From the IMG/VR virus record IMGVR_UViG_3300030098_003955: 64,000 nucleotides of DNA; one strand, 5' to 3'. Position 1 is the first letter of the stretch; every line of letters begins with the position of its first letter. Positions 35,432-51,553 of this stretch are shown piece after piece. This stretch comes from a virus. The notes beneath the pieces are model-generated. The model saw nothing but the letters and a program-made list of their open reading frames with translations, was not told where the DNA came from and did no database searches. The translations under genes and the position numbers were made by a program.

Positions 35432-37890
35432 TACCAGCTAGCCTTTCCTTCATCAAGAGGTGTGGTAGTATCATAGTCAGTGATAGGCTGATTAACCTGT
35501 CTTCTGATTGGTGTGTCACTAGCAGTATGCATTTTGACTGGGTACTGAAGCTGTGACATATTGCTATCATCGAGGTGTGTAACATCCATCTCGTATGTCC
35601 AGCTTATACTCCAAGACCACGATCCAGTCTTTGGATTCCAGCTTTCAGAAGGAGGATCGACATAATATTTACGCACGCCATTTTGGCCTTTAGGACTTAT
35701 GGCATCAATGATTCCCTTTATTTTACCAATCACATCTCCATTGTTTGATGGCTTAGAAACCATCATTTGAGAAAATGTGTTAGTGCCTTGCGTAAGATTT
35801 GTGCTTATGTCATGTATTCTATTGGCCTGAGTTGGGCCATAGCCAGCACGAGTACTAGCGTTTGTGCTTTTAATCGAGTTTGCAATTGTATTCTCAGTCA
35901 ATGCTTGATATCTCATGCCGACATCAACAGTGCAATCAATATTTAAAGTTCTTTTCCATTCGGTTTGAGTGCCGATGTTCTGTAGCACAGGACCAATTTT
36001 TCTACCAATGACTCCTTGAGATGCGTAAACATTTCCGGGATAGTTATCACTGATCGTTATATTTTCAGACCTAGTATTAGGTATTAAGTTCAAAGGTCTA
36101 TTATTAAACGAATAGTTGTAAGTGATTGTTCCAGTAGTTGGATTAGTAGCAACAGATTTTGAAATAGGCCTTGGGTTGAGTAGTATGTAACAACCTCCGC
36201 CATACTTGCCAATATTTCTAGCAGTCCTAACATTGTTAATATGATTAACGACACCAGAGCAGGCAATCTGATTAGCCATGTGCTGTGCTGTCAGATAGAG
36301 CTCTTGCTGTATCCCATTAAAATGAGATAATGCCTCTTCGTATTTTGAGTTTTTATAATTGTTGCCATCTATCCCTGCGTTTGTAAACTCGTTGTTCCTA
36401 AAATCAGCAGCAGACCCTTCTTGCAAATCTAGAGCGTCACTCACAATCGCATCTTGAGTGTGGGAAGGATTTCCAAAGTTGGTTGCAGTTGCGTCACCAT
36501 TATCTATAGCTGGATTTGCGTCAATGCCATCAATACCAGTCATAACAGGCTTGACTAAGCCTTGGACAGATCCATTTATAGAAACAGACACGAGACCATT
36601 ATCTTGTGATTCTTCAACACTTATATCAACAGTTTCGGTGACGTTTGATTGGTTTACACCGGAAGGAGCAAGTAAGTAACTCTCGGAAACCGAAAAGGCT
36701 CCTCCCATCTTGTCTACATTTTGACTTCTGCTATAGTTGAATACAGCATATCCCGAGGGAATACTTACCCCTTGAAGATCAATCTTGTTGTTTAATGGAT
36801 TAAGACCGTGACCAATAATATCAGTCACAAATCCACGAGCTTGTTCCCAAGCAGGGCTATCATATTTTTTAGCAAAGTTTTGAGCTTCTTTGCCTCTAAA
36901 ATTGACGCCACTAGCGGCAAGCCAATCCTCTCCTGCGTACTCATGGTCTGCGGAGCCAGTGCTGGGCTTTAAGAATCCCTCTGCTTGTGGCGTGTTGGTA
37001 AACTCAAACTTATTCTTACCAGTAGCACTTATTGATCTAGAAACAGTGAAAGTTTTATATGTTCTAGAAATGGTTTCTAGAGACGCTGTGTTTAAGTTGT
37101 TTGTAAGACTGGTGTCGGAGTCGTCTTGCTCTCTCCCAGTGTTTGCCGCATTTCCAAAGTTGACTCTTTCTATTACTACCTCAGAACCTTCGGAAATATC
37201 GTATGACTCAGAAGCTCCGGTGATAAGCCACTTGTTTGTAAAGTCATCCTGATCTATCAGCGCTCCGCTAGTCGGGCCAATCAAAAAGTCTGCTTCTAAG
37301 TTGATAGTGTATTGAGCTACATATGTGTTGCCTTCTGGATGTGCTGGCAAATCAACACTAACAATTCTCGGATAGCATTTAAAACCAGAGTTTCCACCCA
37401 TGCCATAGGCGTCAACGAGAAGCTCGCCACCTTCATTCTTTTTACTGAAGAGGTTGGCTATAGCCATTTGCTTTACTTGTAATGACTTATAGTACTGGTT
37501 TATGTTAGTTCCGGGCCCATCTTCCTTGTCAAGCCCTATTGCACCATTGTCCGCACTTGAGGCATCTGTTATTGTAGTAGTCCAATCTTGACTGTACTGG
37601 CCTCCATCATTCCCGTACTTAGTGGTGTTTGGCCTTTTCGAGTACTTAGATGCTTCAAACTTAATGTGTTTGGTTTCATCAACATCATTGTCTCCAGTCA
37701 GGGCGAAAGACCCATTAGACAAGGGAGAGCCATGGTTGGCGACCAATGTACCAGTTAGCGTAATGCTATATGTAATACCAATTATTTCGCCATTACCGGC
37801 TTTGATATAGTTTTTATTTAAATTTATAAAAGGACACGGCGTTATAAAAAATGGATTAGCCTGACCGTGTACGTGGTATGAAATAGGCAT
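35431..37890 (-). CDS. Putative distal tail / baseplate protein
   Basis: 819 aa rich in alternating beta-strand patterns (YSITLTGTL, TVSRSISATG, ITYNYSFN, WSWSISWTY); second gene after TMP. Confidence 0.6.
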   Translation of the reverse strand: MPISYHVHGQANPFFITPCPFINLNKNYIKAGNGEIIGITYSITLTGTLVANHGSPLSNGSFALTGDNDVDETKHIKFEASKYSKRPNTTKYGNDGGQYSQDWTTTITDASSADNGAIGLDKEDGPGTNINQYYKSLQVKQMAIANLFSKKNEGGELLVDAYGMGGNSGFKCYPRIVSVDLPAHPEGNTYVAQYTINLEADFLIGPTSGALIDQDDFTNKWLITGASESYDISEGSEVVIERVNFGNAANTGREQDDSDTSLTNNLNTASLETISRTYKTFTVSRSISATGKNKFEFTNTPQAEGFLKPSTGSADHEYAGEDWLAASGVNFRGKEAQNFAKKYDSPAWEQARGFVTDIIGHGLNPLNNKIDLQGVSIPSGYAVFNYSRSQNVDKMGGAFSVSESYLLAPSGVNQSNVTETVDISVEESQDNGLVSVSINGSVQGLVKPVMTGIDGIDANPAIDNGDATATNFGNPSHTQDAIVSDALDLQEGSAADFRNNEFTNAGIDGNNYKNSKYEEALSHFNGIQQELYLTAQHMANQIACSGVVNHINNVRTARNIGKYGGGCYILLNPRPISKSVATNPTTGTITYNYSFNNRPLNLIPNTRSENITISDNYPGNVYASQGVIGRKIGPVLQNIGTQTEWKRTLNIDCTVDVGMRYQALTENTIANSIKSTNASTRAGYGPTQANRIHDISTNLTQGTNTFSQMMVSKPSNNGDVIGKIKGIIDAISPKGQNGVRKYYVDPPSESWNPKTGSWSWSISWTYEMDVTHLDDSNMSQLQYPVKMHTASDTPIRRQVNQPITDYDTTTPLDEGKASW

Positions 37891-40379
37891 TATTGATAAC
37901 CTCTGACATATAATGTTTCTGAGCCAGTGCCACTAGCAAAAGGCTTGACAAACAATGTTGTATTCGATGTTACTGCTGCGTGACCACTTGTGGCCAGATT
38001 CATGTTACTGTTTCTTCCCAATGTTCCAAATCCATGCATTGAAGATCCACCAAAGATGTTTATATGCTTTAAGAATAAGTTCATATTGTCATTTGCACTG
38101 TAAACACCAGAGTTCCTAACCAAAAGATTTAAGCTGTTATTAACGGGCTCATTAGATCTAAGGTATAGAGGTATGTTGGAGACTGGCTGCAATCCTTTGA
38201 TAAACAACAGTCTGTAGTCTTGGAACCCAGCACCACCAACATTTGGCAGTACCATGTTCATGGCTCCACTTATACTTCCAGAAGATCTATCAGCGTTACT
38301 CAAGTAAAGAGGAGCTGTGTTGAAGAGAGAAGGAACCAAGTCCTTTCCAGCTTGCAGCATAAGATTTACACTAGCAGCCCTCGAACTAAGGACCTCGCTT
38401 CTCTTTAAGAACAGCTGTAGTGTTCTTATCTCAACACCACCAATAGTAAATAGGTTTGCGCTGTTGGATGTGTTTATAGTGGGGACGCCAGAAACATGAC
38501 CTGTGCCACTATGCCCGAGAGAGGTAAGTGGAAATGGATTGTATAATAACAAGTCCATGCTTTGGGCGGCGGTAGTAGCATTTACAAAAAGGTCTGTACT
38601 ACCACTCGAAGAAACTGCGCTAGCCCCAAATGTTTTGAGGGTTAAAGAAGGCGAAAGCTGTCCTGTATTTTGGAAATCTCCACTAGCTGTGTTGAAAGAA
38701 TAAAAACGATCATAGGAAGAAAATCTTACTTTGCTCGAATATATTTTGAACTCGCCGTCGAAGTAAGAACCAGTATCTTCATAAAATACGCTAAGGTTAA
38801 GCTTGTGCTCTTCAAAGAACTCCTTGTAGCTTAAAGACTTTCCGCCTTGGAAATATAAATCATCTGCAAGGACCCCAGAAAAAGTAACTAATTCTGGAAA
38901 TCCTGAAGGGATTAATGCTCCGCCTCTCCATCCCTTTACCTTTCTTATACCACTGACGGCAGCTGCGTTTTCTCTAAACCTAGTAGCAGAATGTGGAATG
39001 AATCGCATATTCCTCTGATAGCTATTATCGTTCTCATTTTCAAACGTAGCTAAAAGTATAGCCCCACTAGGGTGATTTGTTCTATTCTCTACATGGATGT
39101 CTATGAATACATCTTTGACTTGATGTAGATTTGCATGTGCGCTTTTTATAGGGAAAGATATTTGAGAGGAAATGGCATGGGTTGAATGACCCCAAATATC
39201 GAAAGCTCCTCCAGCGGCACCTTCTGAATTTGTGCCATCAATCTCCAGCATGACATGAGTTTTATCTTTGGCGTCAAAAGCTCTACTAAATCCAGCTTGA
39301 GCTATTGCACCACTACCCGGAGTAGTGACCTCTTCATCTATAAATGTAGGAAGAGCAAAGTGAGAATCATAAAAGCTTTTAACTTCATTAGAAGTCATAG
39401 ATCCGCTAGCAAGACCAAGCTCATCAACAAATCCAACAAAGCTATTTTCTACAATGTTAAACTCACTTCGTCCTAGAACGATGTTGGTAGTGTTGTTTCC
39501 AGCGGTTCTTGAAAATGATGGACTTCTACCTTCAAGCTGTCCATTCACATATAGCTTAAGTCTACTATCACCAGATGCGTAAGTAGTAACCATATGGATT
39601 GGGTAGGCATACTGCTCAAACTTCTTAGTACTAGTGACTACAATCGGAGTATTTGTTCCGGCGACGCTTGTGTCTGTTCTAGCAAAGAATCTACCCTCGT
39701 CATTACATCCCATAATCAAGATTGCAGGATCTTCTTTATGCTGACTAAGGAAGGTGGTGCCTGTTATATTTCCACTAGGAGTGAACTTTACATATCCAGT
39801 GAACTCTCCGCCGCCGGTCGCTGGCAAAGCAGCGCCGCTACCAAGAACGACCCTAGAATCATCCCTCAGCAATAAGGACCTTTGCTTGACTGCATTATTT
39901 CCTATTTGCTCTACTGTAGCACCAGCTTTATACCATTCAGCGTTGCCTTGGACTGTGAAGCTGACAGTACTTCCAGATCCAGAGCTACTACAAGTACCAT
40001 CGCCGAGATCGCCATCACTACTACCATCGTATGATGGAGGGCTTGCTGTACATTCAGCATGGTCAGCACACTCATCAGATTGACGACTCCATTCTCCCGG
40101 CGGTTCATTCCATTGATAACTAGCTTGATAGCTAGAGCAGTTGTCGCCCTGTGGAGCATTGCTATTAGGTGTGGATACTACAGGCTTTCCGCCACGAACA
40201 CCACTACCTTCAAAGGGTAAATATAATAAGGAGAACTTACTGTTCTTAAAGTCCCTGTCGGCACTTCCTCTCCAATATCCGTAGTCCAAGTGCGTACCGC
40301 TCGGGAAAACGGCATTGTCTTGCTTATATGCGACCTTGCCGTTTATTACCAGCGAAGCATTATTATTAATCTCTGCCAC
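37890..40379 (-). CDS. LamG / concanavalin-A-like domain virion protein
   Basis: LLYLPFEG...HMVTTY...LKLYVNGQLEG...IVLG...FVGFVDEL...EVKSFY; C-terminal repeats of the MNLFL type; GTG start. Confidence 0.75.
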   Translation of the reverse strand: MAEINNNASLVINGKVAYKQDNAVFPSGTHLDYGYWRGSADRDFKNSKFSLLYLPFEGSGVRGGKPVVSTPNSNAPQGDNCSSYQASYQWNEPPGEWSRQSDECADHAECTASPPSYDGSSDGDLGDGTCSSSGSGSTVSFTVQGNAEWYKAGATVEQIGNNAVKQRSLLLRDDSRVVLGSGAALPATGGGEFTGYVKFTPSGNITGTTFLSQHKEDPAILIMGCNDEGRFFARTDTSVAGTNTPIVVTSTKKFEQYAYPIHMVTTYASGDSRLKLYVNGQLEGRSPSFSRTAGNNTTNIVLGRSEFNIVENSFVGFVDELGLASGSMTSNEVKSFYDSHFALPTFIDEEVTTPGSGAIAQAGFSRAFDAKDKTHVMLEIDGTNSEGAAGGAFDIWGHSTHAISSQISFPIKSAHANLHQVKDVFIDIHVENRTNHPSGAILLATFENENDNSYQRNMRFIPHSATRFRENAAAVSGIRKVKGWRGGALIPSGFPELVTFSGVLADDLYFQGGKSLSYKEFFEEHKLNLSVFYEDTGSYFDGEFKIYSSKVRFSSYDRFYSFNTASGDFQNTGQLSPSLTLKTFGASAVSSSGSTDLFVNATTAAQSMDLLLYNPFPLTSLGHSGTGHVSGVPTINTSNSANLFTIGGVEIRTLQLFLKRSEVLSSRAASVNLMLQAGKDLVPSLFNTAPLYLSNADRSSGSISGAMNMVLPNVGGAGFQDYRLLFIKGLQPVSNIPLYLRSNEPVNNSLNLLVRNSGVYSANDNMNLFLKHINIFGGSSMHGFGTLGRNSNMNLATSGHAAVTSNTTLFVKPFASGTGSETLYVRGYQ

Positions 40380-40393
40380 AAGAAGGTTCCCGA

Positions 40394-43300
40394 CTAGGTT
40401 TGAACGTTAGTTTCGATTGTTTTACTGCGTCTTTTGCCAATCACCTCTGAATCTCTGCCGAGTTTAGGGAAGTGCTTCTTGAGCATTGAATTAATACCCT
40501 GTCTGACCTTACCGGCAGCTATTTCTCCAATCGCTCCCTCAGCTTCGCTCAGCCACTCAGCTCCATTGAGATGGACATCTACATTTATTGTACCACCGAC
40601 ATCCACGCTAAATCCTCCTCTAAGGACATCACTTAGTCTGTCAATTTGTACAGAGAATCTTTGTATGCTTTTGTCAAACTGAGATGCGTCTATCATCGCT
40701 ACTCCGCCGCCACTGACTGTGTCGCCGTCATGATAGTACCCATTTCCTCCACGACGCTTGGTTCCAGCACGACCCATGTTGTTTATGCTTCTTAAAGTTG
40801 AAACACCAACAGCATCTACTGCGGCTTTTCTTACAACGAACTCTCCGGGAGTAAGCATAGCTGGAACAGTGTCAGTACCTCTACGGATGAATGCTCCAGT
40901 GCTTGCGTAGATCATACCTCCTGCATATCTACTTGTTACCGATTCTGCTTGATTTCTTCTTTCCTCTGCCTTTTGGTTGGCTATGGTTTCAGCTTCTGTA
41001 CGAGCTTCCGACAATTTCTGATTTGCTTCATTTATCTCCACTTGTAAAGTATTCAGCGACCCTGTAATAGCATCAAGCGCATTGTTTGCGTTGGTCACAG
41101 CTTCTCCAAAGCTTGACATAGGACCTAATGGTATTCCTGACAGGGCTGCGCTCAATTCTTCAAAACTCATACCAGACTCAAGCATCCTATCTAAGGTATT
41201 AGCGCTAATTCCAGCAGCTAAAGCCTCTTCGCGAATTGCTGCTGCATTTCCCTCTCTCGTAGCTGTACCAGCCATGATCGAAGCTTGCAAGACATCTCCA
41301 AGCATGTCGTCATCAAACTCTCCCATATTAGCGAACCTAGTCCTGAATTCTTTGATGATTTGAGCTCCTAGCTCAGTGTCGCCAAAGGTTCTCTTCATTT
41401 GTTCTTCAATTGCTTGTGCTACTTTTTGTCTTCCTGTTTCTGTATCTACTTCTGCATCGCTCAAGCCAAAGAACTGACCTATTCTATCAATAATCTGAGT
41501 TGTTCCTCCCTCGTCTACTAAGTCTTCCATTTTTAATCCAAACTCTTCACCAAAGAACTTGAATAAGTTTTGAGAGGCTCCAATTCCTGTAGCGTCAGAG
41601 TCTTCTAGATTTCTAATTCCTTTTATCATGTCCCTTTCTTCTGCCGTCATTCCAGAAGTACCAATTCTTTTTATTAAATTCCTTCCGCTCTCTGTGTTAA
41701 TCTTGTCAAATTCAGCTGTAGTTAGTTTGAAGTCACTTCTAATCTTATTGGCCGCATCCCGATTGGACTCCGCAGCTTTCAAATTTACCTCAGCGGTTCG
41801 TTGTTCTTGTTCTAGCCTTCCCTTCTGAGCCTCTAGCATAATCTTCTTGAGCTCTGCTAAAAACGTAGCATTTTGGTTAGCTATGACTTTATTCATATCA
41901 TCAAGAGCTTGTCCTTGTAGCTCTGCTAATATCTTCGCAGCTTCTTCCCTATCTTTGAGGACATCTCTGATTTCCCTCATGATGTCAACTTCTGTCTTAG
42001 AAGCTTCAAACAAAGCCTTGGCTTGACTTTCAAGCATGGCAGGATCAGCTTGTCCTGCATACCTTCTTTGGAACTCAGAGATCATGAGCTGTTCAGCTTC
42101 TTTGCCTTTGCCTTGAGCTCTCAGGAAGCCAATTACATCTTTTTGTCTTTCTCTAGAAAGTCCAGCCAGACTTCCTGTTTCTTGAGTTCTTCTTGTGGCA
42201 AGAGCAGTCCTGATAGCCCTATTTGAACTACTAGCATCACCAAACATGATGTCTTCTGCCATCGAGCCTTTTGCTTCTCTTTCTTTTCTAGCTTTAGAAA
42301 GACGTTCTTGTAGCTGGGCCAGCAGTTCTGTGGAGCTCTTATAATTTTCTAAAACCTGAGTAAGACTTTGGAACTCACTTCTTAAGGTCTCTGACTCATC
42401 TAGAAGTGCTCTTTGTTCTCTTATCTGGTCTACATTTAATCCGCCGCCTTGGTCTGATTGCAGTTGCGCAAGTTCATTAAGCCTGTTAGCTATTTCTCTC
42501 ATCCTGTCTCTGTTTGCTCCAGCGGCAGCTCCAACAGAGGAAAGACCGGCGCCAGAACCAAGACGAGTATTTGATAGCAAAACATTCTGTCTTCTCTCAA
42601 AATCTGCTTGAGGTTGTCCAGCAGCAATCGAGCCTCCAGTCATTTCTCTTATTATTTTTGCATTGTCTTGCTGTACGCTTACGACTGCTCCAAGCGCCTT
42701 AATATATTTTTGCTCAAGGTCAGTCCTTTTCTTAAGTGCCTGAGCTAACTGTGCGTTCTGTTTGCTGATTATCTCTCTCATTGTATTAAAGAGATCTACT
42801 GCTATAGTTCCGGGCAATCCTTCTATTAACTTTTTAGTAGCACCTTCTATGTCAGCATCTACAAACTCTTTCAGCGTTTTCTTTGCTCCGTCTGCGTCAT
42901 TAGCCATGTTGCCAAGCTTAGCACTAAACGCATCTAGCTGAGCCTGAACCTCTGGAAGGCTTATGTCAATTCCTGCTTTTTTAAGTCTCTCTTCTAACTT
43001 TTTCCGAACGACATCTTCAATTTCTTCACCTTCACCAAGCTGGGTAAGAGAAGCATCTGAAATTATATTTTGCAAGTCTGACTGAACAACATCAGCTATA
43101 CCAGCAGTGACACCGGCGGCAGTTCCTATGCCGCCCATGACGGAGGCGCCTCCAATCGTAGAGGTGGCCTGAAAGCCTGCCATTATACCGGCGCTTTGTC
43201 CAATCATTCCACGCTTGGTAACATCTAATTTGACAAACTTACCTAAAGAAAGAGAAGCGTTATCGGCAGTTGCACTTAAGTTGTCCAGTGCGGTTTTCTG

Positions 43301-46300
43301 TATGTCTAGTGACTTGGAATAATTTTCTAAAGCTGAGAATAGATAGTTCATACTAGACCTAAGAGTGTTCATCTTAGCTATAGTATCTGCCATGTCTTTC
43401 GTTCGTTGGTTTGCTAAGGCTTGGGCTTTTATCTGATCCATATACTGCTTTTTAAGCCTATGGAATGGTATGCCCTGCATCAATGCAAGTTGTCTAACTG
43501 CATTTTCGGCATTAGTCGCAAACAAAGCTTGAGCCTCTGCGGCAGTACGACCGCCACTTGCAACATCTTTTACTAATTTATCTAGACCAGCAACAGTCCC
43601 CTTGATGACTTCAGTTCTGGCTTTCAGTGCATTCTGTCTGTCCTCATCATTAGTTACCTGATATAGTCTTTCAGCTGTACCAGCCAAAGTTCGACCAGCT
43701 TGTACTACGTAAGAGCCTGCCTCTATTCCACCAGCTTCAAAAGCTTTGGTAGCTGAGTTAAACGCATTTATCATAGAGTCAAATTTGAATTTATTTTTAG
43801 CGGCATTAATTTTTTCTGCTACCGTGCTAGCAAAATTCGCAAGCTCTGCAAGAGCCATGATCCAACCAACTGGACCCATAAAGGCAAAGATAAGAACCTT
43901 GAGTCCCGTCTTGATCGCCTCGCCCACTTTAACCATAGTTTCGGCTTGCATTTGAATGCCTAAGAAGGTGCTTGTTGTCTGCCCTTCTTCTAAAGCTTTC
44001 TGTCCTTTTTTGGACATCTTACTACCAGCCGCATAAAGAGCAGCAAAAGCTATAACAGCAGCTCCAACCCCAGCAGCTAATCCGATTAATGGCCCGACTG
44101 CCCCAGCAGCAGCAGATGTGAATGCACTGCCAGCCTTTGTCAGCCCTGAGCCGAGCGGCCCTAAACCTTTACCAAAGTTCGACATCTTAGTGCCAACATT
44201 AGTAAGGCCTCTACCAATTGAGGTAAATTTTTTGCTCAAGGCTACGGCTGCTGGATTAGCTGCCATAGCAGCGCTCGGTGCGGCTGCTCCCCCTGCCAGA
44301 CCTGCCATTGACTGATGTTTCATTGCCGTCAAAAAGCCAGTTTTTCCACCGAACTTACCGCTAAGCGCACTCGCTATAGCCTCTTTCTGCTTCGCGACAA
44401 TTAACAAGCCTGTGGCAATTCCGAGAGCTCCAAACAACTTAATGTTTTCAGCAATCGACTCATTTTGGCCAGATATACTGTCAACTACATTAGAGGCACT
44501 ATCTGCCAGAGCTTGGAGAACAGCAGGCAACATAGTGAAAATAAATAACGCATTGGTGAGCTTACCCATCATTCCACCAATGCCACCCGTACCACCACCA
44601 ACAGGTCCAGCACTTCCAGTATTGAATCCAACAATACCACCTTTATTGAACCTAGCAGCTCCATGCCTGTTCATTCGTGAAAGGTTGCCATAGCCAATAC
44701 TTTTAGCGGACTTTGCATTGACTACAAATTCGCCGGGAGTCAAAAGGGCAGGGACGCTATCAGAGCCATAGATACCACCACCTGTATTTTTTGTTTTCCT
44801 TTTTGATCTTAGTGCGGTCGTTCGACGTTGAATTGCGCTTCTAAAAAGACCTTGATTGACCCCTTTTTTAATAACATCTTGTGCAGCTTTGTTGGTGCCG
44901 GAAAGCTTGATGTCTGTATAGGGCTGTATGTCCTCCTTAGTGTATTGGCCTAGTGAGGCATTAATAAGGTCAAAGTCTCTATTTCCCGGTTTGTCGGCTT
45001 TTGAAATAGCAATAACGTAGTCTTCAAATAACTGACCCATACCTTGGCTAAATTTTTTGCCCATGGTAAGGCCCATAGCATTGCCTTTGGCTCTTTTAGA
45101 ACTCTTGCTTAATTTTTTTCTACTTTTTATGACAGTGCTTTCTATTGGGTCTTCTGCCATTTTTTTGAAGCCTTCGCTTCTTGTGAATTGAGATACATCC
45201 ACTGGGGCAGTAAACCTAGTCGCGGGAGCAAGTGTTTTAAGTCTTTTTATAGCAGTAGTTTGTCTGACTTTATCAATCGAAACACTTGACTTATTAAAGT
45301 CTCTAGGGTCGCCATCTCCTGTCTTACGAATAAGCATCCCAAGGCTGTCATTCAATTTTACTTTGTTACCAGCGCTGTACTTGTTCATAGCATGAAGACG
45401 CTCAGTGCCTATCGACTGAACGGCACTCTTTCTAAGAACAAACTCTCCGGGAGTTAAGACTGCTGGAACGCTATCAGTGTTGCCACTTCCGGGAACGACG
45501 CCACCCCTATTAAACCCAAGCATCTTCCCGAAGCCTTTAGCCGCAAATCTACCAGCCATACCTACAGCAAGCATACCAATGACAGGTATCAAAGGACTAA
45601 GAGCATCAGCAACTTTGATAGCCGCATTGGCTATCTTAATCATCATGTCTACAAAGACTTGGAATCCTTTAGTCGCAGTGATTGTTCTAAAGAGTTCCTT
45701 GACTGTTTCTGTTAGTCTTTGCATCCTAACTATGGTAGCCTTCTGGGCTGTCTGCGCGTCCCTATCTAAAGAACCAGACTCGGCCATGGCAACAGCTCTA
45801 GCTTTCTCCGCTTCAGAGAATTGCTGAATCATAGGGATAACTTTAGAAACCTGACGGAAACCACCAAGTTGTTCAATAATCATTGAATACCTGATGTCTC
45901 TAGGATCTAAAGAAGCCAAAGCAGCATTAAGCCTTCTAACAGCGTCATAAGAACCAACAAACTTTCCGTCAAGACCTTGAAGCTCAACCCCAAATTGCCT
46001 CAAGAATTTAATTGTTGTCGGTCTCTGTAAACGTGTAAAGATAGTCCTAAAACCAGTAGCAATGGTTTCAGCAGTTTCACGAGTGGTCGAACGCACGGAT
46101 GTGAATAAAGCTATGAGCTCTTCTACACTACCGCCAGCAGCTCTAAATGCACCACCAGCACGCTTGATAGCAGTACCAATGTCAGATGCCTCAACAGCAA
46201 ATTGACCAGCCACAGCATTAATCTGCCCAAGAACTCTATCAAGGCCAGATGCTTCAATTTTGAATTGCCTCATTACGGCAACCGCAGTTTCAGCTGTATT

Positions 46301-46858
46301 TTTAATATCATCAAAAGTAGGTGCTAGCGTTGTTTTGGCCAAAGCTTGCATCGCTATTCTGGTATCGTTTGCACTTAAACCAGTTTGCGCCAAAATTCTA
46401 GTGACATCTACTAATGAGGATGACGAAACCCCAAGACCTGTACTTATATCACTAATGGATTTTTGTAGACCTTGCAGTTGTTTTACACTTTTGCCCGTAA
46501 CCTGAGAGACTTTTATCATTTGTCTCTCAAATTGAAGTGCTGCACTAGTGGCATCAGAGATACCTCTAGTCATAATTCTTATTGCGGCGTATGCTAATTG
46601 AGTTCTAAGAGCGTAGAAAACAGCACCCTTAAGCTGTTTGCCAAACTTGTTCATCGCTCCCGCTGCTTGATTTGCCTGCTTAGCTACGTTGGAAGTTTGG
46701 TTAGCGGTGTTCTTTAATTGCTGATTAGCCTTACCAGAATTGACGTTTACATTTACATTTAACTGATTTTGCAATTGCTGTCTAATTTGCGTTGCAAATC
46801 TAGTTAATTGAGGTGCTTGGAAATTCACCTGTGCTGTCAATTGAAATGGTTGCGCCAT
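40394..46858 (-). CDS. Phage tail tape measure protein (TP901-like core)
   Basis: FERQMIKVSQVTG, LAQTGLSA, INAVAGQFAV, TRETAETIATGFRTIFTRL, LGGFRQ; hydrophobic Ala/Gly segments, long coiled coils, three D[ST]VPAxLTPGEFV repeats; follows tube and chaperones. Confidence 0.92.
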   Translation of the reverse strand: MAQPFQLTAQVNFQAPQLTRFATQIRQQLQNQLNVNVNVNSGKANQQLKNTANQTSNVAKQANQAAGAMNKFGKQLKGAVFYALRTQLAYAAIRIMTRGISDATSAALQFERQMIKVSQVTGKSVKQLQGLQKSISDISTGLGVSSSSLVDVTRILAQTGLSANDTRIAMQALAKTTLAPTFDDIKNTAETAVAVMRQFKIEASGLDRVLGQINAVAGQFAVEASDIGTAIKRAGGAFRAAGGSVEELIALFTSVRSTTRETAETIATGFRTIFTRLQRPTTIKFLRQFGVELQGLDGKFVGSYDAVRRLNAALASLDPRDIRYSMIIEQLGGFRQVSKVIPMIQQFSEAEKARAVAMAESGSLDRDAQTAQKATIVRMQRLTETVKELFRTITATKGFQVFVDMMIKIANAAIKVADALSPLIPVIGMLAVGMAGRFAAKGFGKMLGFNRGGVVPGSGNTDSVPAVLTPGEFVLRKSAVQSIGTERLHAMNKYSAGNKVKLNDSLGMLIRKTGDGDPRDFNKSSVSIDKVRQTTAIKRLKTLAPATRFTAPVDVSQFTRSEGFKKMAEDPIESTVIKSRKKLSKSSKRAKGNAMGLTMGKKFSQGMGQLFEDYVIAISKADKPGNRDFDLINASLGQYTKEDIQPYTDIKLSGTNKAAQDVIKKGVNQGLFRSAIQRRTTALRSKRKTKNTGGGIYGSDSVPALLTPGEFVVNAKSAKSIGYGNLSRMNRHGAARFNKGGIVGFNTGSAGPVGGGTGGIGGMMGKLTNALFIFTMLPAVLQALADSASNVVDSISGQNESIAENIKLFGALGIATGLLIVAKQKEAIASALSGKFGGKTGFLTAMKHQSMAGLAGGAAAPSAAMAANPAAVALSKKFTSIGRGLTNVGTKMSNFGKGLGPLGSGLTKAGSAFTSAAAGAVGPLIGLAAGVGAAVIAFAALYAAGSKMSKKGQKALEEGQTTSTFLGIQMQAETMVKVGEAIKTGLKVLIFAFMGPVGWIMALAELANFASTVAEKINAAKNKFKFDSMINAFNSATKAFEAGGIEAGSYVVQAGRTLAGTAERLYQVTNDEDRQNALKARTEVIKGTVAGLDKLVKDVASGGRTAAEAQALFATNAENAVRQLALMQGIPFHRLKKQYMDQIKAQALANQRTKDMADTIAKMNTLRSSMNYLFSALENYSKSLDIQKTALDNLSATADNASLSLGKFVKLDVTKRGMIGQSAGIMAGFQATSTIGGASVMGGIGTAAGVTAGIADVVQSDLQNIISDASLTQLGEGEEIEDVVRKKLEERLKKAGIDISLPEVQAQLDAFSAKLGNMANDADGAKKTLKEFVDADIEGATKKLIEGLPGTIAVDLFNTMREIISKQNAQLAQALKKRTDLEQKYIKALGAVVSVQQDNAKIIREMTGGSIAAGQPQADFERRQNVLLSNTRLGSGAGLSSVGAAAGANRDRMREIANRLNELAQLQSDQGGGLNVDQIREQRALLDESETLRSEFQSLTQVLENYKSSTELLAQLQERLSKARKEREAKGSMAEDIMFGDASSSNRAIRTALATRRTQETGSLAGLSRERQKDVIGFLRAQGKGKEAEQLMISEFQRRYAGQADPAMLESQAKALFEASKTEVDIMREIRDVLKDREEAAKILAELQGQALDDMNKVIANQNATFLAELKKIMLEAQKGRLEQEQRTAEVNLKAAESNRDAANKIRSDFKLTTAEFDKINTESGRNLIKRIGTSGMTAEERDMIKGIRNLEDSDATGIGASQNLFKFFGEEFGLKMEDLVDEGGTTQIIDRIGQFFGLSDAEVDTETGRQKVAQAIEEQMKRTFGDTELGAQIIKEFRTRFANMGEFDDDMLGDVLQASIMAGTATREGNAAAIREEALAAGISANTLDRMLESGMSFEELSAALSGIPLGPMSSFGEAVTNANNALDAITGSLNTLQVEINEANQKLSEARTEAETIANQKAEERRNQAESVTSRYAGGMIYASTGAFIRRGTDTVPAMLTPGEFVVRKAAVDAVGVSTLRSINNMGRAGTKRRGGNGYYHDGDTVSGGGVAMIDASQFDKSIQRFSVQIDRLSDVLRGGFSVDVGGTINVDVHLNGAEWLSEAEGAIGEIAAGKVRQGINSMLKKHFPKLGRDSEVIGKRRSKTIETNVQT
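40815..45516 (-). repeat. Three copies of the peptide repeat D[ST]VPA[VLM]LTPGEFV within the TMP (about 45420-45516, 44705-44790, 40815-40930)
   Basis: TDSVPAVLTPGEFVLRKSAV; SDSVPALLTPGEFVVNAKSA; TDTVPAMLTPGEFVVRKAAV. Confidence 0.9.
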
Positions 46859-46933: not shown

Positions 46934-47842
46934 CTATTCGGGATTATTTGTTGCCGTCTTTTTAGGAGGACGACCTCTCCTTTTCTTAGGTTCCTTTATC
47001 TCCGTCTCCTCTGCTTCAGCTTCAGCTTCAGCTTCTTCTGAGTTTGGAGGCGTAACTTCTTTTCCATCTTCATCTAGAAATGGAACAAAGTCCATCTTGT
47101 AACGAAGCTTGTCATCTAATTCAATACCGTCGTGAGAAAGAAGCTTTCCATCTTCATCTACTCGATATCCAAGCTCGTTCACCCTTTCTCCATCTCTGTT
47201 GACTAAATTGCCATCCTCATCAATCAACCTTAGTTCGTCATCTACAAACTTGTAATCTGAAAGGAAAGTATTCTCAGGTAAATTCTTTTCAAAGTTTGCG
47301 TCCAAGCCGTATAGCCGTTCGGCTAAAACTCTAGCGGCTTCAACTACATAAGGAGTTCCTGTGTCGTTTTCATAGTCTTCTTGGCTTTCAAATAGTTTTT
47401 CACCATTCTCATCAAGAATACATGCAAAGCAAAGATAATTAAATCTAGCATTGTCCGCTTGTCCTTCTGCGGTACTGCTATCCATCTGTGTACGTTCTGC
47501 AATGAGATTCCTAAACTCGGCTCTTGAGTCCCTCATCTCTAATGCTATTTGTTTTGCTTCAGAAAGCTTAATACCACCTGAAGCAATCTTTTTCTCGTTA
47601 TCATTGATGCTTGTGAGTATTTCTTGGTATCTGGTTTCTTTTTCTTGACTCCAAACACCTTGCTCAATTAAAACATCATCGAGTTTTCTTCTCAACACAG
47701 CGCCTGACTGTATTGCGTCTCTAAAAGTTCTGTTGTAAGCTAGCTGTGATTCTTTAGATACTTTGGAATTTGGCAACTGAATATATACAGTTACCTTCTT
47801 TCCATCATTATCATTAGATTCGACCTTAATTCGTTCCGGCAT
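46934..47842 (-). CDS. Putative tail assembly chaperone with a C-terminal AT-hook-like motif
   Basis: Immediately upstream of TMP; acidic and helical; DEDG repeats; KKRRGRPPKK. AGGAG spacing favours ATG 47842 over 47848. Confidence 0.6.
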   Translation of the reverse strand: MPERIKVESNDNDGKKVTVYIQLPNSKVSKESQLAYNRTFRDAIQSGAVLRRKLDDVLIEQGVWSQEKETRYQEILTSINDNEKKIASGGIKLSEAKQIALEMRDSRAEFRNLIAERTQMDSSTAEGQADNARFNYLCFACILDENGEKLFESQEDYENDTGTPYVVEAARVLAERLYGLDANFEKNLPENTFLSDYKFVDDELRLIDEDGNLVNRDGERVNELGYRVDEDGKLLSHDGIELDDKLRYKMDFVPFLDEDGKEVTPPNSEEAEAEAEAEETEIKEPKKRRGRPPKKTATNNPE

Positions 47843-48212
47843 CTTCATCTCCTTCTAAACTTTTAACTGGGATAGTCATCTCATATCTACGCCAGTTAAT
47901 ATCATAATTAGCAAATTCTCCTTCTAAGTTCCTAGACTGGTTGTTACCCTTGTCTAAAATCTCAGACCTTATTTGAGAGAACTGTTCTCTCATATGTTCC
48001 TGCTCTGGAGTTAAGGCTTCTTCTGAGCCGTAGCCCCACAGAAAACCAAAATGTTTTTCTATGATACTAAGAGCGCCTATCATAGTTGTCTCAATTTTCT
48101 TTTGAGAGATTTTGAGAAGGCGGTCTTTTGAAATTTGCTTGTATCTTTCCTCTCTTGTTTCCTTGTAGTCTTTAGACTTTCTTATTAAGTCTTGATACTT
48201 TTCCATATCCAT
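47826..48212 (-). CDS. Hypothetical protein (tail assembly region)
   Basis: 128-aa coupled ORF between tube and TMP. Confidence 0.7.
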   Translation of the reverse strand: MDMEKYQDLIRKSKDYKETREERYKQISKDRLLKISQKKIETTMIGALSIIEKHFGFLWGYGSEEALTPEQEHMREQFSQIRSEILDKGNNQSRNLEGEFANYDINWRRYEMTIPVKSLEGDEDAGTN

Positions 48213-49249
48213 TATCGGATTCCTTTTTGTTCTTGTGCTATTCTTGTGCGAACATCCATGAAATCTAAATCATGAGCAGTCTTACCTTTTTCAGAAGCAA
48301 CCTTTATTGCTTTTTGTCTTTGAGCAATATTAAATCTTGACTGTTCTGAATTGAGGTCATAAATTTCTTCTATTTCCTCTTGGTTATCAGCCATGATGAA
48401 AATCTCATCAGAGTTTTTGACCTTGTCTGATAATCCATCATCTAAGGACTTGGTTTTTTTATCCTTGTCTCTTTTGCGGTTCTCTTGTATTAGCCAACCA
48501 TCAAAAGCATCATCGTCTTCAACTATTTCCTTGCTTGGACAATCAGGACTTTCTTGAACATTTTCATAAAGTTTAGACCATCCAACTACGCTTTTTTGTT
48601 CTTGAGTGAGCTCAATTATTGGCCTGTCGAAAATAGACGAGCCTTCCTTTGAGCTAGAAGCCCAAAGGCTTCTCCAAGGTTCCTCCCTCGATATCTTCCT
48701 AGCATCACTATCTGAAAGCATGTGTTTAGTAACGTGGTTTAGAACCGTGTTAATTCCCACTTCTTTCCAGTCGTAAGGCCGTCCATCCTCAAATGTGACA
48801 GTATTTTCTATTAACCAATTAAGCTTTGCGTATGTAGCTAAGCCTTCGCAGGTTACATAATTATACTGCATTTTTTCTTGCATCAATTCAGTGAATTGAT
48901 CTTCAAGATTTCTTAAATCCTGTCTATAGCCTTCTCTAACTGTAGTTTGTCGAAAGTTCTTAAATATCTTTATTTTAAGCTCTTCGACTTCATTAGGTAT
49001 TTGCTCTAAAGTTTCTTCCTTTTCTGAAGACCAAATACCTTCCGCTTTTAACAATTTAACAGATTCTTCTGAAGTCAAATTGTCTTTAACTAACGCATCT
49101 CGATACGCTTCCTTGTATACTACTTGAGACTTGTATAATTGCTGTAAGCTTGGATTGTGAATACGAAGTACCAAACCCTCTTTGACTTTGTATTCTTTGT
49201 ATCCAAGAAACAACTCATAAACAATTAAGTCTCTTTCGTATGCTTCCAT
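48212..49249 (-). CDS. Hypothetical protein, possible tail assembly chaperone
   Basis: 345-aa charged helical ORF directly after the tail tube gene. Confidence 0.65.
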   Translation of the reverse strand: MEAYERDLIVYELFLGYKEYKVKEGLVLRIHNPSLQQLYKSQVVYKEAYRDALVKDNLTSEESVKLLKAEGIWSSEKEETLEQIPNEVEELKIKIFKNFRQTTVREGYRQDLRNLEDQFTELMQEKMQYNYVTCEGLATYAKLNWLIENTVTFEDGRPYDWKEVGINTVLNHVTKHMLSDSDARKISREEPWRSLWASSSKEGSSIFDRPIIELTQEQKSVVGWSKLYENVQESPDCPSKEIVEDDDAFDGWLIQENRKRDKDKKTKSLDDGLSDKVKNSDEIFIMADNQEEIEEIYDLNSEQSRFNIAQRQKAIKVASEKGKTAHDLDFMDVRTRIAQEQKGIR

Positions 49250-49260
49250 CCCATAAGTCC

Positions 49261-49338
49261 AAAAAAGTCAGCATACCACTTGCCTATCTTCCACATGCTT
49301 TCCTTAAGCGATGGCTATCGCAGATTGCATATGCCGAC
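49261..49338 (-). terminator. Branched RNA structure ending in a U-tract after the tail tube gene (terminator/attenuator)
   Basis: Minus strand GTCGGCATA...TATGCTGAC-TTTTTT closes an internal GCGAT-AGCC-ATCGC hairpin and ATCT/AGAT, TGC/GCA pairings. Confidence 0.6.
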
Positions 49339-49346
49339 CAATATAT

Positions 49347-50513
49347 TTAGTTGAGGTAATCGCCTTGGCCATGACCACCACTAGCACTTACAACGCTAAG
49401 TTCGTTGAAGTTACGGTAAGAGAAAGTCATAGTTGAGTTTTCACCACCAGTTGTACCACCACCATAAGCAACGGAGGTAAGGGTATTATTGTCCCCTAAT
49501 CCGAATGTATGGTTGGCTGCACTATTACTGTCAGCTTTGTCTGGAGTGTTCTTAACCTGAAGCACAATAGATCTTGCGCCCGTGTTAATCTCATTAGTCA
49601 AAGCGTTGACGTCGGTTCCAGAAGCTAAAACTTCAACTTCGGTAGTGACTTCAAACGGAAGACTGACAAATCTCAGGAACGGGTCTTTTTGGCCTAGTAT
49701 GTTAATATTTTCTCGACCAAAATCAGCGCTTACAGAAATGTTTGTAATTCTTGCATTGCTACCAGTATCAGTGGCTACACCATACTTCTTGTTCGTGGTT
49801 ACAGCATCTACCCAGTTCGTTGACCTGATGCCACTAAGAGCACCCATGTTAACAAAGTGCTGTCTTCTCTTAACACCAGTATCTTTAGCAACAGTGCTAG
49901 ATCCGTCATTCTCATTAAGAACATCAGTAGCTCTGGCTCTTTTAGCCGCGTCTTTTGTTGGTAGATGCCTAATTGACTGGCCACTTTGTGTCTGATATAC
50001 AAATCTCTTGTTATTACCAACAAAGGTAATGGACTCGGTGAAGTTTCCGTCGGTTGGGAAAGAAAAAGAGGCAGAAGATACGTACATACCAGTGGCAACA
50101 ATGAATGTTCCCAAGGTTGTATTATCAACGTCGCCTAAGTTATTCTTGCCGTCGTTACCAACTTGGAAGACCAAAGTTTTCTTGTTGTTCTGAAGCTGAA
50201 TAACCCCACCGTGACCGCCCATACCTCTATTGTAAAGAAGGTCGTAGTCATCAATGGTCTTTTCTACAGTGATTTCGATATCTGGAACTTCTTCGTAGTC
50301 TTGGTACAAAGCAAGCTGACCAAGCTGGAAGATTTGTTCTAAGTTGAATGTAGTTGTAATACCGACACTCTGAACGCCCGGTACATACTCTGCTTTTTTA
50401 GCAGGTGTGTTCATGTCGGTGCGAGCATTGTCGTCGCTGTCTGTTCTAATTGCGCCGTCGTCCGCGACTCCAAGTGCGGTGATAGCCCAATATAGTCTAT
50501 TTGGGACTGCCAT
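49347..50513 (-). CDS. Major tail tube protein (putative)
   Basis: Lies between neck genes and chaperones/TMP; strong AAGGAG RBS and promoter motif; two related halves (VQSVGITTTFNLEQIFQLG...PDIEITVE / SVSADFGRENINILG...PFEVTTEVE). Confidence 0.75.
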   Translation of the reverse strand: MAVPNRLYWAITALGVADDGAIRTDSDDNARTDMNTPAKKAEYVPGVQSVGITTTFNLEQIFQLGQLALYQDYEEVPDIEITVEKTIDDYDLLYNRGMGGHGGVIQLQNNKKTLVFQVGNDGKNNLGDVDNTTLGTFIVATGMYVSSASFSFPTDGNFTESITFVGNNKRFVYQTQSGQSIRHLPTKDAAKRARATDVLNENDGSSTVAKDTGVKRRQHFVNMGALSGIRSTNWVDAVTTNKKYGVATDTGSNARITNISVSADFGRENINILGQKDPFLRFVSLPFEVTTEVEVLASGTDVNALTNEINTGARSIVLQVKNTPDKADSNSAANHTFGLGDNNTLTSVAYGGGTTGGENSTMTFSYRNFNELSVVSASGGHGQGDYLN

Positions 50514-50555
50514 TTTATGTTAAACTCCTTAAAAGTTGAGAATACTTTCCAAAGT

Positions 50556-50564
50556 ATTATACAC
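50556..50564 (-). promoter_or_regulatory. Putative late promoter motif GTGTATAAT
   Basis: Intergenic, about 45-50 nt upstream of the tail tube ATG; overlaps the inverted repeat AATACTTT-CC-AAAGTATT (50541-50558). Confidence 0.6.
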
Positions 50565-50569
50565 CAAAA

Positions 50570-51553
50570 TTAATTTATAACTTCCATAGTTACCCTTACC
50601 GTTCCATGGTAAAGGTTAGTAGATAATGGGTCTGAATTTGCCACTCTAGTGTTCGTAAATCTAGCAATACCACCCTCTACGCCGTTGTAAGCAAATCCTC
50701 CAACTCCACTTGGCCTTATTAAGGCTGGGTATGTCTTAGCATAAGCATTCACCATGCCCCTATAATCAATAGGAAATGCATTATTTTCGCCTATTGCATT
50801 TGTATCAAAAAGAACGATTGCCGCTTCTTCTTGGAAGGATATCATGTCTATGAGCTGATCTCTTTCATAATCTTCCTCAGCAAGAATATGAAATACTACG
50901 TCTAAGCCTAGTTCATGCTTTGAATTACCAAGCTCGTAGGGTTCAAATCTTCTGCTTCCAGCTATCTCTACGCCAACTGCTGGTAATTGGATTCTGTTTT
51001 CTCCAAGGATAGAATAGTCGCCAGAGCCAACCATTTGAAAATCTTCGTCTGCTCTTTGGGTTCTATATTGTATTTCCCTAAAAAACCTACTATTGGCTGG
51101 CACTACGTCTACATATTTATAACTGTACTCAGCGGTAACAGTGCTGCTGGTATCTATAGCAGAGTCAAAGACAACTCTACCATTATCATAGTCAATATGA
51201 TGGGAGTAAGAATCACTGCTAGTAATGGGCTTAAAAGCGCCATCGACATAAACTCCAGATATTCCGGGATTTGCTGGGGTCGTTGTAGTATTAGGTCTTT
51301 CAGGAGCAGATAATCCACTCTCCCATACCCAGTTTTTTCTAAAGCCTTCCCAAACCTGACCAGAGTCATATCTTGGATCGTCAACAAGTCTAAGTTGGTG
51401 CTTATCAGCACCATACCAGCCACTAGTAGGTATTTCTATATTCGTAAAGCCACCTGCATTCAAAAACTCCCAATCAAAAAATGAGACTAGGTTGTCTTGA
51501 AGTAAGGTGCTTAATGTAGGCTTACCAAATGTAGTTATTTTATTTAATACCAT
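50570..51553 (-). CDS. Putative tail completion/terminator protein
   Basis: IQLPAVGVE...DVVFHILAE...RDQLIDMI; includes IDYDNGRVVF...VTAEYSY; directly upstream of the tube gene. Confidence 0.65.
   Translation of the reverse strand: MVLNKITTFGKPTLSTLLQDNLVSFFDWEFLNAGGFTNIEIPTSGWYGADKHQLRLVDDPRYDSGQVWEGFRKNWVWESGLSAPERPNTTTTPANPGISGVYVDGAFKPITSSDSYSHHIDYDNGRVVFDSAIDTSSTVTAEYSYKYVDVVPANSRFFREIQYRTQRADEDFQMVGSGDYSILGENRIQLPAVGVEIAGSRRFEPYELGNSKHELGLDVVFHILAEEDYERDQLIDMISFQEEAAIVLFDTNAIGENNAFPIDYRGMVNAYAKTYPALIRPSGVGGFAYNGVEGGIARFTNTRVANSDPLSTNLYHGTVRVTMEVIN

Follow-up and report, generated by a model that had tools for sequence, protein, structure and literature searches.

The window analyzed here, a stretch of 64,000 nucleotides from the IMG/VR virus record IMGVR_UViG_3300030098_003955, carries on its minus strand a single open reading frame (ORF) of 6465 nt that encodes a protein of 2154 aa. 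Profile searches place this protein among the TP901-type tape measure proteins (TMPs): TIGR01760 matched aa 96-440 with 108.4 bits (cut-off 28.8; E = 3.7e-31), PF10145 matched aa 133-320 with 93 bits (cut-off 33.2; E = 2.9e-26), and the first 440-630 aa were recognized by a dozen PHROG tape-measure families, the only other PHROG matches being to two families of unknown function. Its length, three transmembrane (TM)-like segments and an acidic helical region of 965 aa correspond to those of a long helical TMP. It is a giant marine-phage TMP of modular construction, and two of its elements are the subject of this work: a repeated unit, present in three copies, and the basic domain located between the first two of them.

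The first-pass annotation had noticed in this gene two D[ST]VPAxLTPGEFV repeats bracketing an insert; the flagged positions 44705-45516 correspond to aa 448-718 of the TMP, that is, copies 1 and 2 with the insert between them. The motif occurs at aa 462-474 (45437-45475), aa 700-712 (44723-44761) and aa 1996-2008 (40835-40873). The repeat is a unit of about 60 aa, in which a Gly-rich lead is followed by a beta-hairpin, a pair of short helices and, as its tail, YAxGG. From the column statistics of 447 copies in 121 proteins its consensus reads F[AN]xGG-x-V-x-G-x-G-x-x-D-T-V-P-A-M-L-T-P-G-E-F-V-[IV]-x-K-x-[AS]-[VA]-x-x-I-G-x-x-x-L-x-x-M-N, followed by YAxGG. In the AlphaFold prediction, copies 1 and 2 both show this arrangement: the beta-hairpin (VPAxL / FV) comes first and two short helices follow, with pLDDT values of 70-80. 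It had also been proposed that [FY]xxG motifs flank the repeats. Six of the ten such motifs in the TMP do adjoin the three repeats, but they are not separate signals, because they are part of the longer conserved unit. At the DNA level the three copies show only codon-level similarity, with a longest exact match of about 9 nt, which indicates old repeats kept at the protein level. A recent DNA duplication was rejected, since the copies differ at most synonymous sites.

The unit is a widespread element. Searching with aa 440-760 retrieved 2563 TMP-sized database proteins, mostly via the unit, and in the 120 of them that were listed there are from one to seven copies per protein; the first copy lies typically near aa 487 and the last at a median of 160 aa before the C-terminus. 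A profile of the three copies retrieved, among PDB sequences, the TMP chains 8zdo_S (Douge gp16, matched twice), 8rk3_A (JBD30 gp46) and 8iyk_H (lambda gpH). A hidden Markov model (HMM) built from 434 units matched lambda gpH at aa 754-786 (E = 1e-8, calculated for that single sequence) and JBD30 gp46 at aa 1020-1070 (E = 0.007). By eye, the segment FATGG...GYATGGYVG of gpH (aa 735-786) is colinear with the whole unit, and in both phage proteins the unit lies within the last 120-140 aa. The model of the lambda TMP C-terminal region, TIGR01541, matched the window TMP weakly and over the unit only (10.1 bits against a cut-off of 104.75); what the two proteins have in common is the unit and not the whole TIGR01541 domain. 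Among GenBank phages, the unit was found in the TMPs of Gordonia siphophages and in a transmembrane protein of the cyanomyophages S-SM2 and Bellamy, all of which have the unit alone in common with this TMP family. A literature search on the repeat motif string found no report. The comparisons that follow demonstrate, at the level of sequence, that in this family the units separate TMP segments of different evolutionary histories.

The clearest case is a relative of 2152 aa (P0011), which is 93-97% identical to the window TMP over aa 1-497 and 690-2154. By segment, the identity is 95% over aa 1-445, 77% in the first unit and 91% in the second, 77% in a Gly/Ala-rich region and 96-97% in the long "ruler" region and the C-terminus; over aa 498-689, no similarity was detectable. 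The BLAST alignment stops at G497, the last residue of YSAG, and restarts at K690, the start of KNTGGG, both breakpoints coinciding with unit edges. The cassette that P0011 carries instead (aa 498-682) contains GERFE...APIDG...VEVK (GERFEQRV...APIDGVYKGRPVEVK), a canonical-looking string that comes even closer to a minimal PD-(D/E)xK motif than that of the window insert. The P0011 cassette had fragments as its only homologues and no match in Pfam or in the PDB. The divergence of this slot is not limited to P0011. At the DNA level, the window gene and its nearest relative are about 100% identical over the codons for aa 1-500 and 90-98% identical, with two in-frame indels, over those for aa 501-700, returning to 100% at aa 601-620. 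Among 237 pairs of TMPs with at least 70% identical N-domains, slot 1 was regularly the most diverged part: in one example pair the identities of N-domain, downstream region and cassette were 96, 70 and 26%, and in another 89 and 74% with none in the cassette.

The other slots of the relatives hold some 60 unrelated segment families. In P0065, a metagenomic TMP of 3195 aa, an ADP-ribosyltransferase domain (PF03496, E = 5.9e-10) occupies aa 923-1135, with units on either side at aa 828 and 1159, and carries FLSTS and EKE strings that resemble the STS and ExE catalytic motifs. This protein would apparently bring a toxin-type enzyme into the tail lumen. As a separate observation, a late slot of the giant TMP P0034, between units at aa 2118 and 2776, contains an SHD1 domain (SLA1 homology domain 1, PF03983, E = 4.8e-10) at aa 2682-2725. 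In the window TMP itself, no recognized enzyme domain was detected by Pfam and NCBIfam scans. The units do bracket exchangeable segments and enzyme cargo exists in the family, but the slot of the window TMP holds the module that is standard for the family. The comparison of homologous TMPs, suggested from the beginning as a way to look for different domains between the repeats, yielded such domains, among them the unrelated cassette of P0011 and the enzyme of P0065. Together with the rapid divergence of slot 1 and a block replacement that coincides with the unit edges, these two support the idea of a swappable slot.

The insert between copies 1 and 2 has 225 aa and is predicted to be alpha/beta and not coiled coil. 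Over aa 501-685 it contains 19% K+R and 10% D+E, with a net charge of +17. The early description of a basic, non-coiled-coil insert bracketed by repeats inside a TMP was therefore right. The three strings from which a PD-(D/E)xK nuclease had been proposed are located at aa 608 (GQLFEDYV), aa 626 (NRDFDL) and aa 647 (YTDIKLS). The ordered pattern E..D..[DE]xK arises in 65% of shuffles of the insert, so the motif string alone is no evidence. The flagged residues are, however, those conserved across 125 unique copies of the domain core, and they must mark a real site, whatever its role. An iterated HMM of this core module (aa 600-672) found 134 copies, of which 125 are unique, in 110 of 130 fetched TMPs. 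G608, E612 and K665 are invariant in the unique copies; F611 is kept in 111 and F629 in 112 of them; position 630 is D in 115 and E in 8, position 649 is D in 108 and E in 15, and position 651 is K in 115, R in 3 and T in 4. Nearly all other columns are highly variable. The conserved columns follow the residue order of the PD-(D/E)xK nucleases (E ... D ... (D/E)xK).

Nearly all copies of the module lie between units 1 and 2, and 72% of them end 80 aa or less before the next unit. A second copy is present in about 20 proteins, and one protein has three. P0042 (aa 1030-1573), P0017, P0025, P0072 and others carry the module two to three times per TMP, with the invariant residues intact in every copy. 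A HMMER search of 1.84 billion cluster representatives retrieved 13 relatives of the insert, all of them either TMP-like, with the match directly after unit 1, or short fragments. The insert core is thus the standard occupant of slot 1 in the family, present in the same slot in the large majority of relatives, and not the variable cargo that had been supposed. By hhalign, the P0011 cassette aligned only weakly with the module (P = 0.004, 8% probability), with the G/F/E residues and a D in register.

To evaluate the fold, two AlphaFold models were considered: model 1 covers aa 440-760 (23-sequence alignment, pLDDT 75, above 85 over most of the insert) and model 2 covers aa 545-692 (35-sequence alignment, pLDDT 81). 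In model 1, five short strands in the non-conserved N-terminal half are followed by two long helices (aa 561-587 and 598-619), the second of which bears E612. DSSP places D630 before a strand of two residues and D649-K651 in a strand of five residues, after which come two helices, the first with K665. The helices are kept in model 2 and the strands are reduced to isolated single bridges. The spacer between D630 and D649, with the family consensus FDFP..G.L..LF..LP...DAK, is a proline-flanked amphipathic stretch with no hairpin pattern.

Neither Pfam, NCBIfam and PADLOC (E up to 10) nor PDB sequences gave a nuclease or any other enzyme, whether searched with the whole TMP or with the cassette alone. 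Folding the insert and looking for restriction-endonuclease folds had been proposed as a check; the fold matches of both models were helical hairpins and other TMPs, with Z of at most 6.7. In the Foldseek (PDB, BFVD) and VIA searches no nuclease and no lysozyme was among the matches listed, an absence which does not by itself exclude a nuclease fold. Weak Foldseek rows with GH46 chitosanases were lost in the second look with VIA. The module resembles the minimal cores of PD-(D/E)xK nucleases (Hjc, Mrr, VRR-NUC) in having an E on a helix, a hydrophobic residue followed by D, a (D/E)xK element and D/E exchange at the third position. It differs from them in that no profile or fold similarity was detected, the module seems too short for the four-stranded core, and the spacer from D to DxK looks helical. 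In short, the motif chemistry of PD-(D/E)xK enzymes fits, but the searches and models revealed neither homology nor the defining fold.

A search of the ESM Atlas gave no match at 0.9 or above. The nearest named language-model clusters were those of the P22 gp7 ejection proteins (0.82, below the reliable range and thus a weak lead), and the Pfam search of the cassette gave no match to the P22 gp7-like family PF25688. The gp7-type proteins are helical; they are expelled ahead of the DNA and build a trans-envelope conduit. However, gp7 is packaged in the head as a protein of its own, outside any TMP, and no alignment or common motifs with the window domain were found.

Table 1. Segments of the tape measure protein gene; positions refer to the whole window.
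Feature	Positions	Strand	Basis
TMP gene (P0001), 2154 aa	40394..46858	-	single ORF; PF10145, TIGR01760, PHROG tape-measure families
TP901-type TMP core domain, aa 96-440	45539..46573	-	TIGR01760, PF10145; best conserved of all segments in the relatives
Junction unit copy 1, aa 446-497, FNRGG...DSVPAVLTPGEFV...IG...L..MNKYSAG	45368..45523	-	motif; predicted beta-hairpin and two short helices
Slot-1 cassette, aa 498-689, basic, predicted alpha/beta domain	44792..45367	-	block replacement in P0011; pLDDT mostly >85
Conserved core module, aa 600-672 (G608, F611, E612, F629, D630, D649, K651, K665)	44843..45061	-	conservation in relatives
Junction unit copy 2, aa 690-745	44624..44791	-	motif; predicted hairpin and two helices as in copy 1
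Gly/Ala-rich hydrophobic region, aa 746-1010, TM-like segments 767-785, 916-946, 985-1007	43829..44623	-	hydropathy scan, composition
Long acidic helical "ruler" region, aa 1011-1975	40934..43828	-	composition
Junction unit copy 3, aa 1976-2045, RYAGG...DTVPAMLTPGEFV...	40724..40933	-	motif
C-terminal tail, aa 2046-2154, presumed tip anchor	40397..40723	-	position; analogy with T5, JBD30 and lambda TMPs

The segments of the TMP are listed in Table 1. Across the relatives, a spacing of 1000-1400 aa between units is kept at the position of the ruler, and copy 3 lies about 110-160 aa from the C-terminus, as the last copy does in most of them. The C-terminal tail is presumed to be a tip anchor by analogy with the TMPs of T5, JBD30 and lambda, whose C-terminal coiled coils were seen in tail tips (PMC10038345, PMC11445458, PMC12617516). 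Apart from the cassette, the Gly/Ala-rich region, especially aa 821-1020, is a second hot spot of divergence. Its nucleotide identity with the nearest relative (L001) falls to 60-88%, with indels, against about 99% in the rest of the gene, and it is the most divergent part.

With respect to the genomic context, the TMP gene lies within a co-directional block of very large ORFs. Nine neighboring ORFs were tested and gave no PHROG match at E <= 1e-3, so the context of the TMP is positional only. These large flanking ORFs (128-2123 aa; window positions 27016-40379 and 46934-51553) presumably encode tail chaperones, tube, distal tail and tip proteins. The nearest record to the TMP gene is an IMG/VR contig. 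Neither megablast of the TMP gene nor tblastn of the insert gave a match among GenBank phages, and tblastn with whole TMPs (that of the window and P0026) matched there the N-terminal domain or the unit and nothing more. The tail module is very remote from those of described phages.

Another aspect to consider is the relationship between the units and the proteolytic processing of TMPs, which is known for lambda and T5 only (PMC12617516). In lambda, a cut in a Gly-rich region near aa 691-730 removes about 14 kDa (the gpHC fragment) from gpH; the product, gpH*, forms a periplasmic conduit (PMC12617516). The unit of gpH starts at aa 735, just past that Gly-rich region, and it therefore opens the gpHC fragment. 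The likeness to the window TMP resides in this unit (gpH aa 735-790, FATGG...PAGIVHRGEFVFTKEATSRIGVGNLYRLMRGYATGGYVG). However, gpH has a single unit, near its C-terminus, whereas three are present in the window TMP and as many as seven in its relatives, where entire domains separate the copies. In the JBD30 study, a cut at R1066 was proposed (PMC11445458), and this residue lies at the end of the unit in gp46. By analogy, processing beside the Gly-rich leads of the units would be plausible in the window TMP as well, and we consider it reasonable to propose it.

The best precedent for a cleavable cargo in a TMP is T5 pb2, which is cut after R1127 to separate the muralytic pb2C; it is a TMP with an enzymatic domain that is split off by maturation cleavage and ejected at infection (PMC10038345). 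The cargo of pb2 is C-terminal and has a recognized metallopeptidase motif, whereas the window domain is internal and matched no enzyme family. A relationship by sequence between pb2 and the unit was rejected: the unit HMM did not match pb2, and the pairwise scores were at shuffle level except for one marginal match, between the lead of copy 3 (aa 1976-1990, window 40889-40933, AESVTSRYAGGMIYAS) and pb2 aa 1120-1136 (ANSFVPR/AEGGMMYPG, at R1127), whose score of 35 (shuffle p ~0.05) is too weak to use. Partial matches of the module in T5 pb2 and lambda gpH (2-7 bits) were likewise too weak and were set aside. A further likeness is found in the effectors of the Sle1 type of contractile injection systems (CIS), which are reported to combine a TMP-derived scaffold with an exchangeable and diverse functional domain (PMC13277306). 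These effectors are cargo of actinobacterial CIS and not phage tail rulers.

Taking these results together, we favor, with about even confidence, a reading in which the stretch represents the first slot (slot 1) of a giant, modular TMP, and its domain is a built-in, working component of the protein that is ejected, not a mobile nuclease. By analogy with T5, JBD30 and lambda, the TMP would leave the tail C-terminus first. The slot-1 domain would be carried as a compact helical hairpin in the third of the tail lumen nearest the head. It would exit only when the C-terminal anchor, the ruler and the hydrophobic Gly/Ala-rich region had left, the last of these entering the membrane. It could then refold as part of a trans-envelope conduit beside the leading DNA end, the cluster E612/D630/D649-K651/K665 acting as a salt-bridge or cation-binding lock that would fix the helices within or between subunits. 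The units would give the protein flexible joints, would offer patches of homology at which phages could exchange cassettes, and might also be sites of processing. The TM-like segments found directly after unit 2 agree with this proposal. Moreover, a module that is near-universal and repeated within single proteins fits better with a structural part than with an effector.

Several observations weigh against this preferred reading. Invariant G, E and K residues, together with about 90% conserved D and D/E-x-K positions, in an otherwise hypervariable domain are the classic signature of an active or metal site; the cluster opposes three acids to two lysines, which is unbalanced for salt bridges; and a slot that evolves fast while its cluster is kept is a pattern also displayed by host-interacting enzymes. 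The five-residue cluster is defined by sequence conservation, the models are of single chains and derive from shallow alignments (23 and 35 sequences), and the order of exit and the final location of the domain are inferred from other phages.

Under the nuclease identity first proposed, the core module would be a strongly diverged nuclease or phosphodiesterase, either of the PD-(D/E)xK type or of some other two-metal type, delivered by the TMP, freed by cleavage at the units and acting on host or competing DNA or RNA. The predicted placement of E612 on a helix, of F-D630 before a short strand, of D649-x-K651 in a strand and of K665 on the next helix would suit such an enzyme; the motif residues are the most conserved in the 125 copies and show D/E and K/R exchange; the P0011 cassette string is weakly in register with the module; the domain is basic; and the ADP-ribosyltransferase of P0065 demonstrates that enzyme cargo can lie between units. 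We nevertheless consider the nuclease unlikely. No nuclease model or solved nuclease was matched in sequence, and no nuclease fold appeared among the Foldseek or VIA matches of either model. The module, of about 75 aa with two short strands (isolated bridges in model 2), shows no four-stranded sheet in the models, and its D630-D649 stretch is proline-flanked and amphipathic instead of a hairpin. In addition, the motif order is expected by chance in most shuffles, and the module is near-universal and sometimes triplicated in one TMP. The original interpretation is thus partly supported, the slot having fared better than its proposed content.

Less probable still, in our opinion, is a non-catalytic domain whose charged cluster would be the site at which, during delivery, either the leading end of the DNA or a factor of the host envelope or inner membrane is held. 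The net charge of +17 speaks for it, as does the location in the N-terminal, head-proximal third, which implies nearness to the DNA end (a TMP-DNA contact has reportedly been seen in the neck of 80-alpha, according to the title of one preprint, 10.1101/2024.12.10.627806). Its surfaces also diverge fast around a fixed core, as expected of host-interacting parts. But acidic residues predominate among the invariant ones, an odd feature for a DNA-binding site, and no known DNA-binding fold was detected. We give very little credit to a cryptic cell-wall hydrolase of the lysozyme-superfamily type, in which the Glu would be borne by a helix and the Asp, some 18 residues further on, by a small sheet. 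The spacing of 18 between E612 and D630 is like that of the catalytic pairs of HEWL (E35/D52) and GH46 (E22/D40), the predicted order of a helix, a small sheet and helices agrees, and three GH46 chitosanase entries were among the weak Foldseek rows (E 4.7-6.4). Many TMPs carry muralytic activity, and no other wall hydrolase was recognizable in this one by Pfam. Invariant lysines are, however, not a feature of lysozymes, and no Pfam hydrolase was matched. Finally, a more far-reaching and speculative proposal, which we rate as improbable, is that the giant TMPs of marine phages are polyproteins in which the unit is a processing and recombination joint, the segments between units are exchangeable ejected payloads, and the slot-1 module is a new, derived metal-dependent nuclease or phosphodiesterase that would act beside the entering DNA. 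If this were true, occasional toxins such as the ADP-ribosyltransferase of P0065 would be delivered alongside, and the position of the cut in lambda gpH would be explained.

TMPs are generally regarded as rulers, some of which also carry a domain that degrades the cell wall. That domains can be embedded in them, that some are processed and that the unit forms part of a TIGRFAM model was already known. What appears to be undescribed is that the unit recurs as a joint in thousands of giant TMPs, that a conserved module with an invariant cluster fills slot 1, and that entire blocks are replaced between joints. A unit known only from the C-terminus of lambda gpH proves to be a repeated joint that partitions these proteins into independently evolving segments, and it is a concrete, testable candidate for the processing region of gpH. 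The unannotated domain in the first slot, with its active-site-like charged cluster, offers a defined biochemical target for the roles of TMPs after ejection. The replacement of cassettes, together with the enzyme of P0065, shows that phages are able to place a variety of functions in the tail lumen, which is relevant both to the early steps of infection and to the engineering of phage- or tailocin-based delivery.

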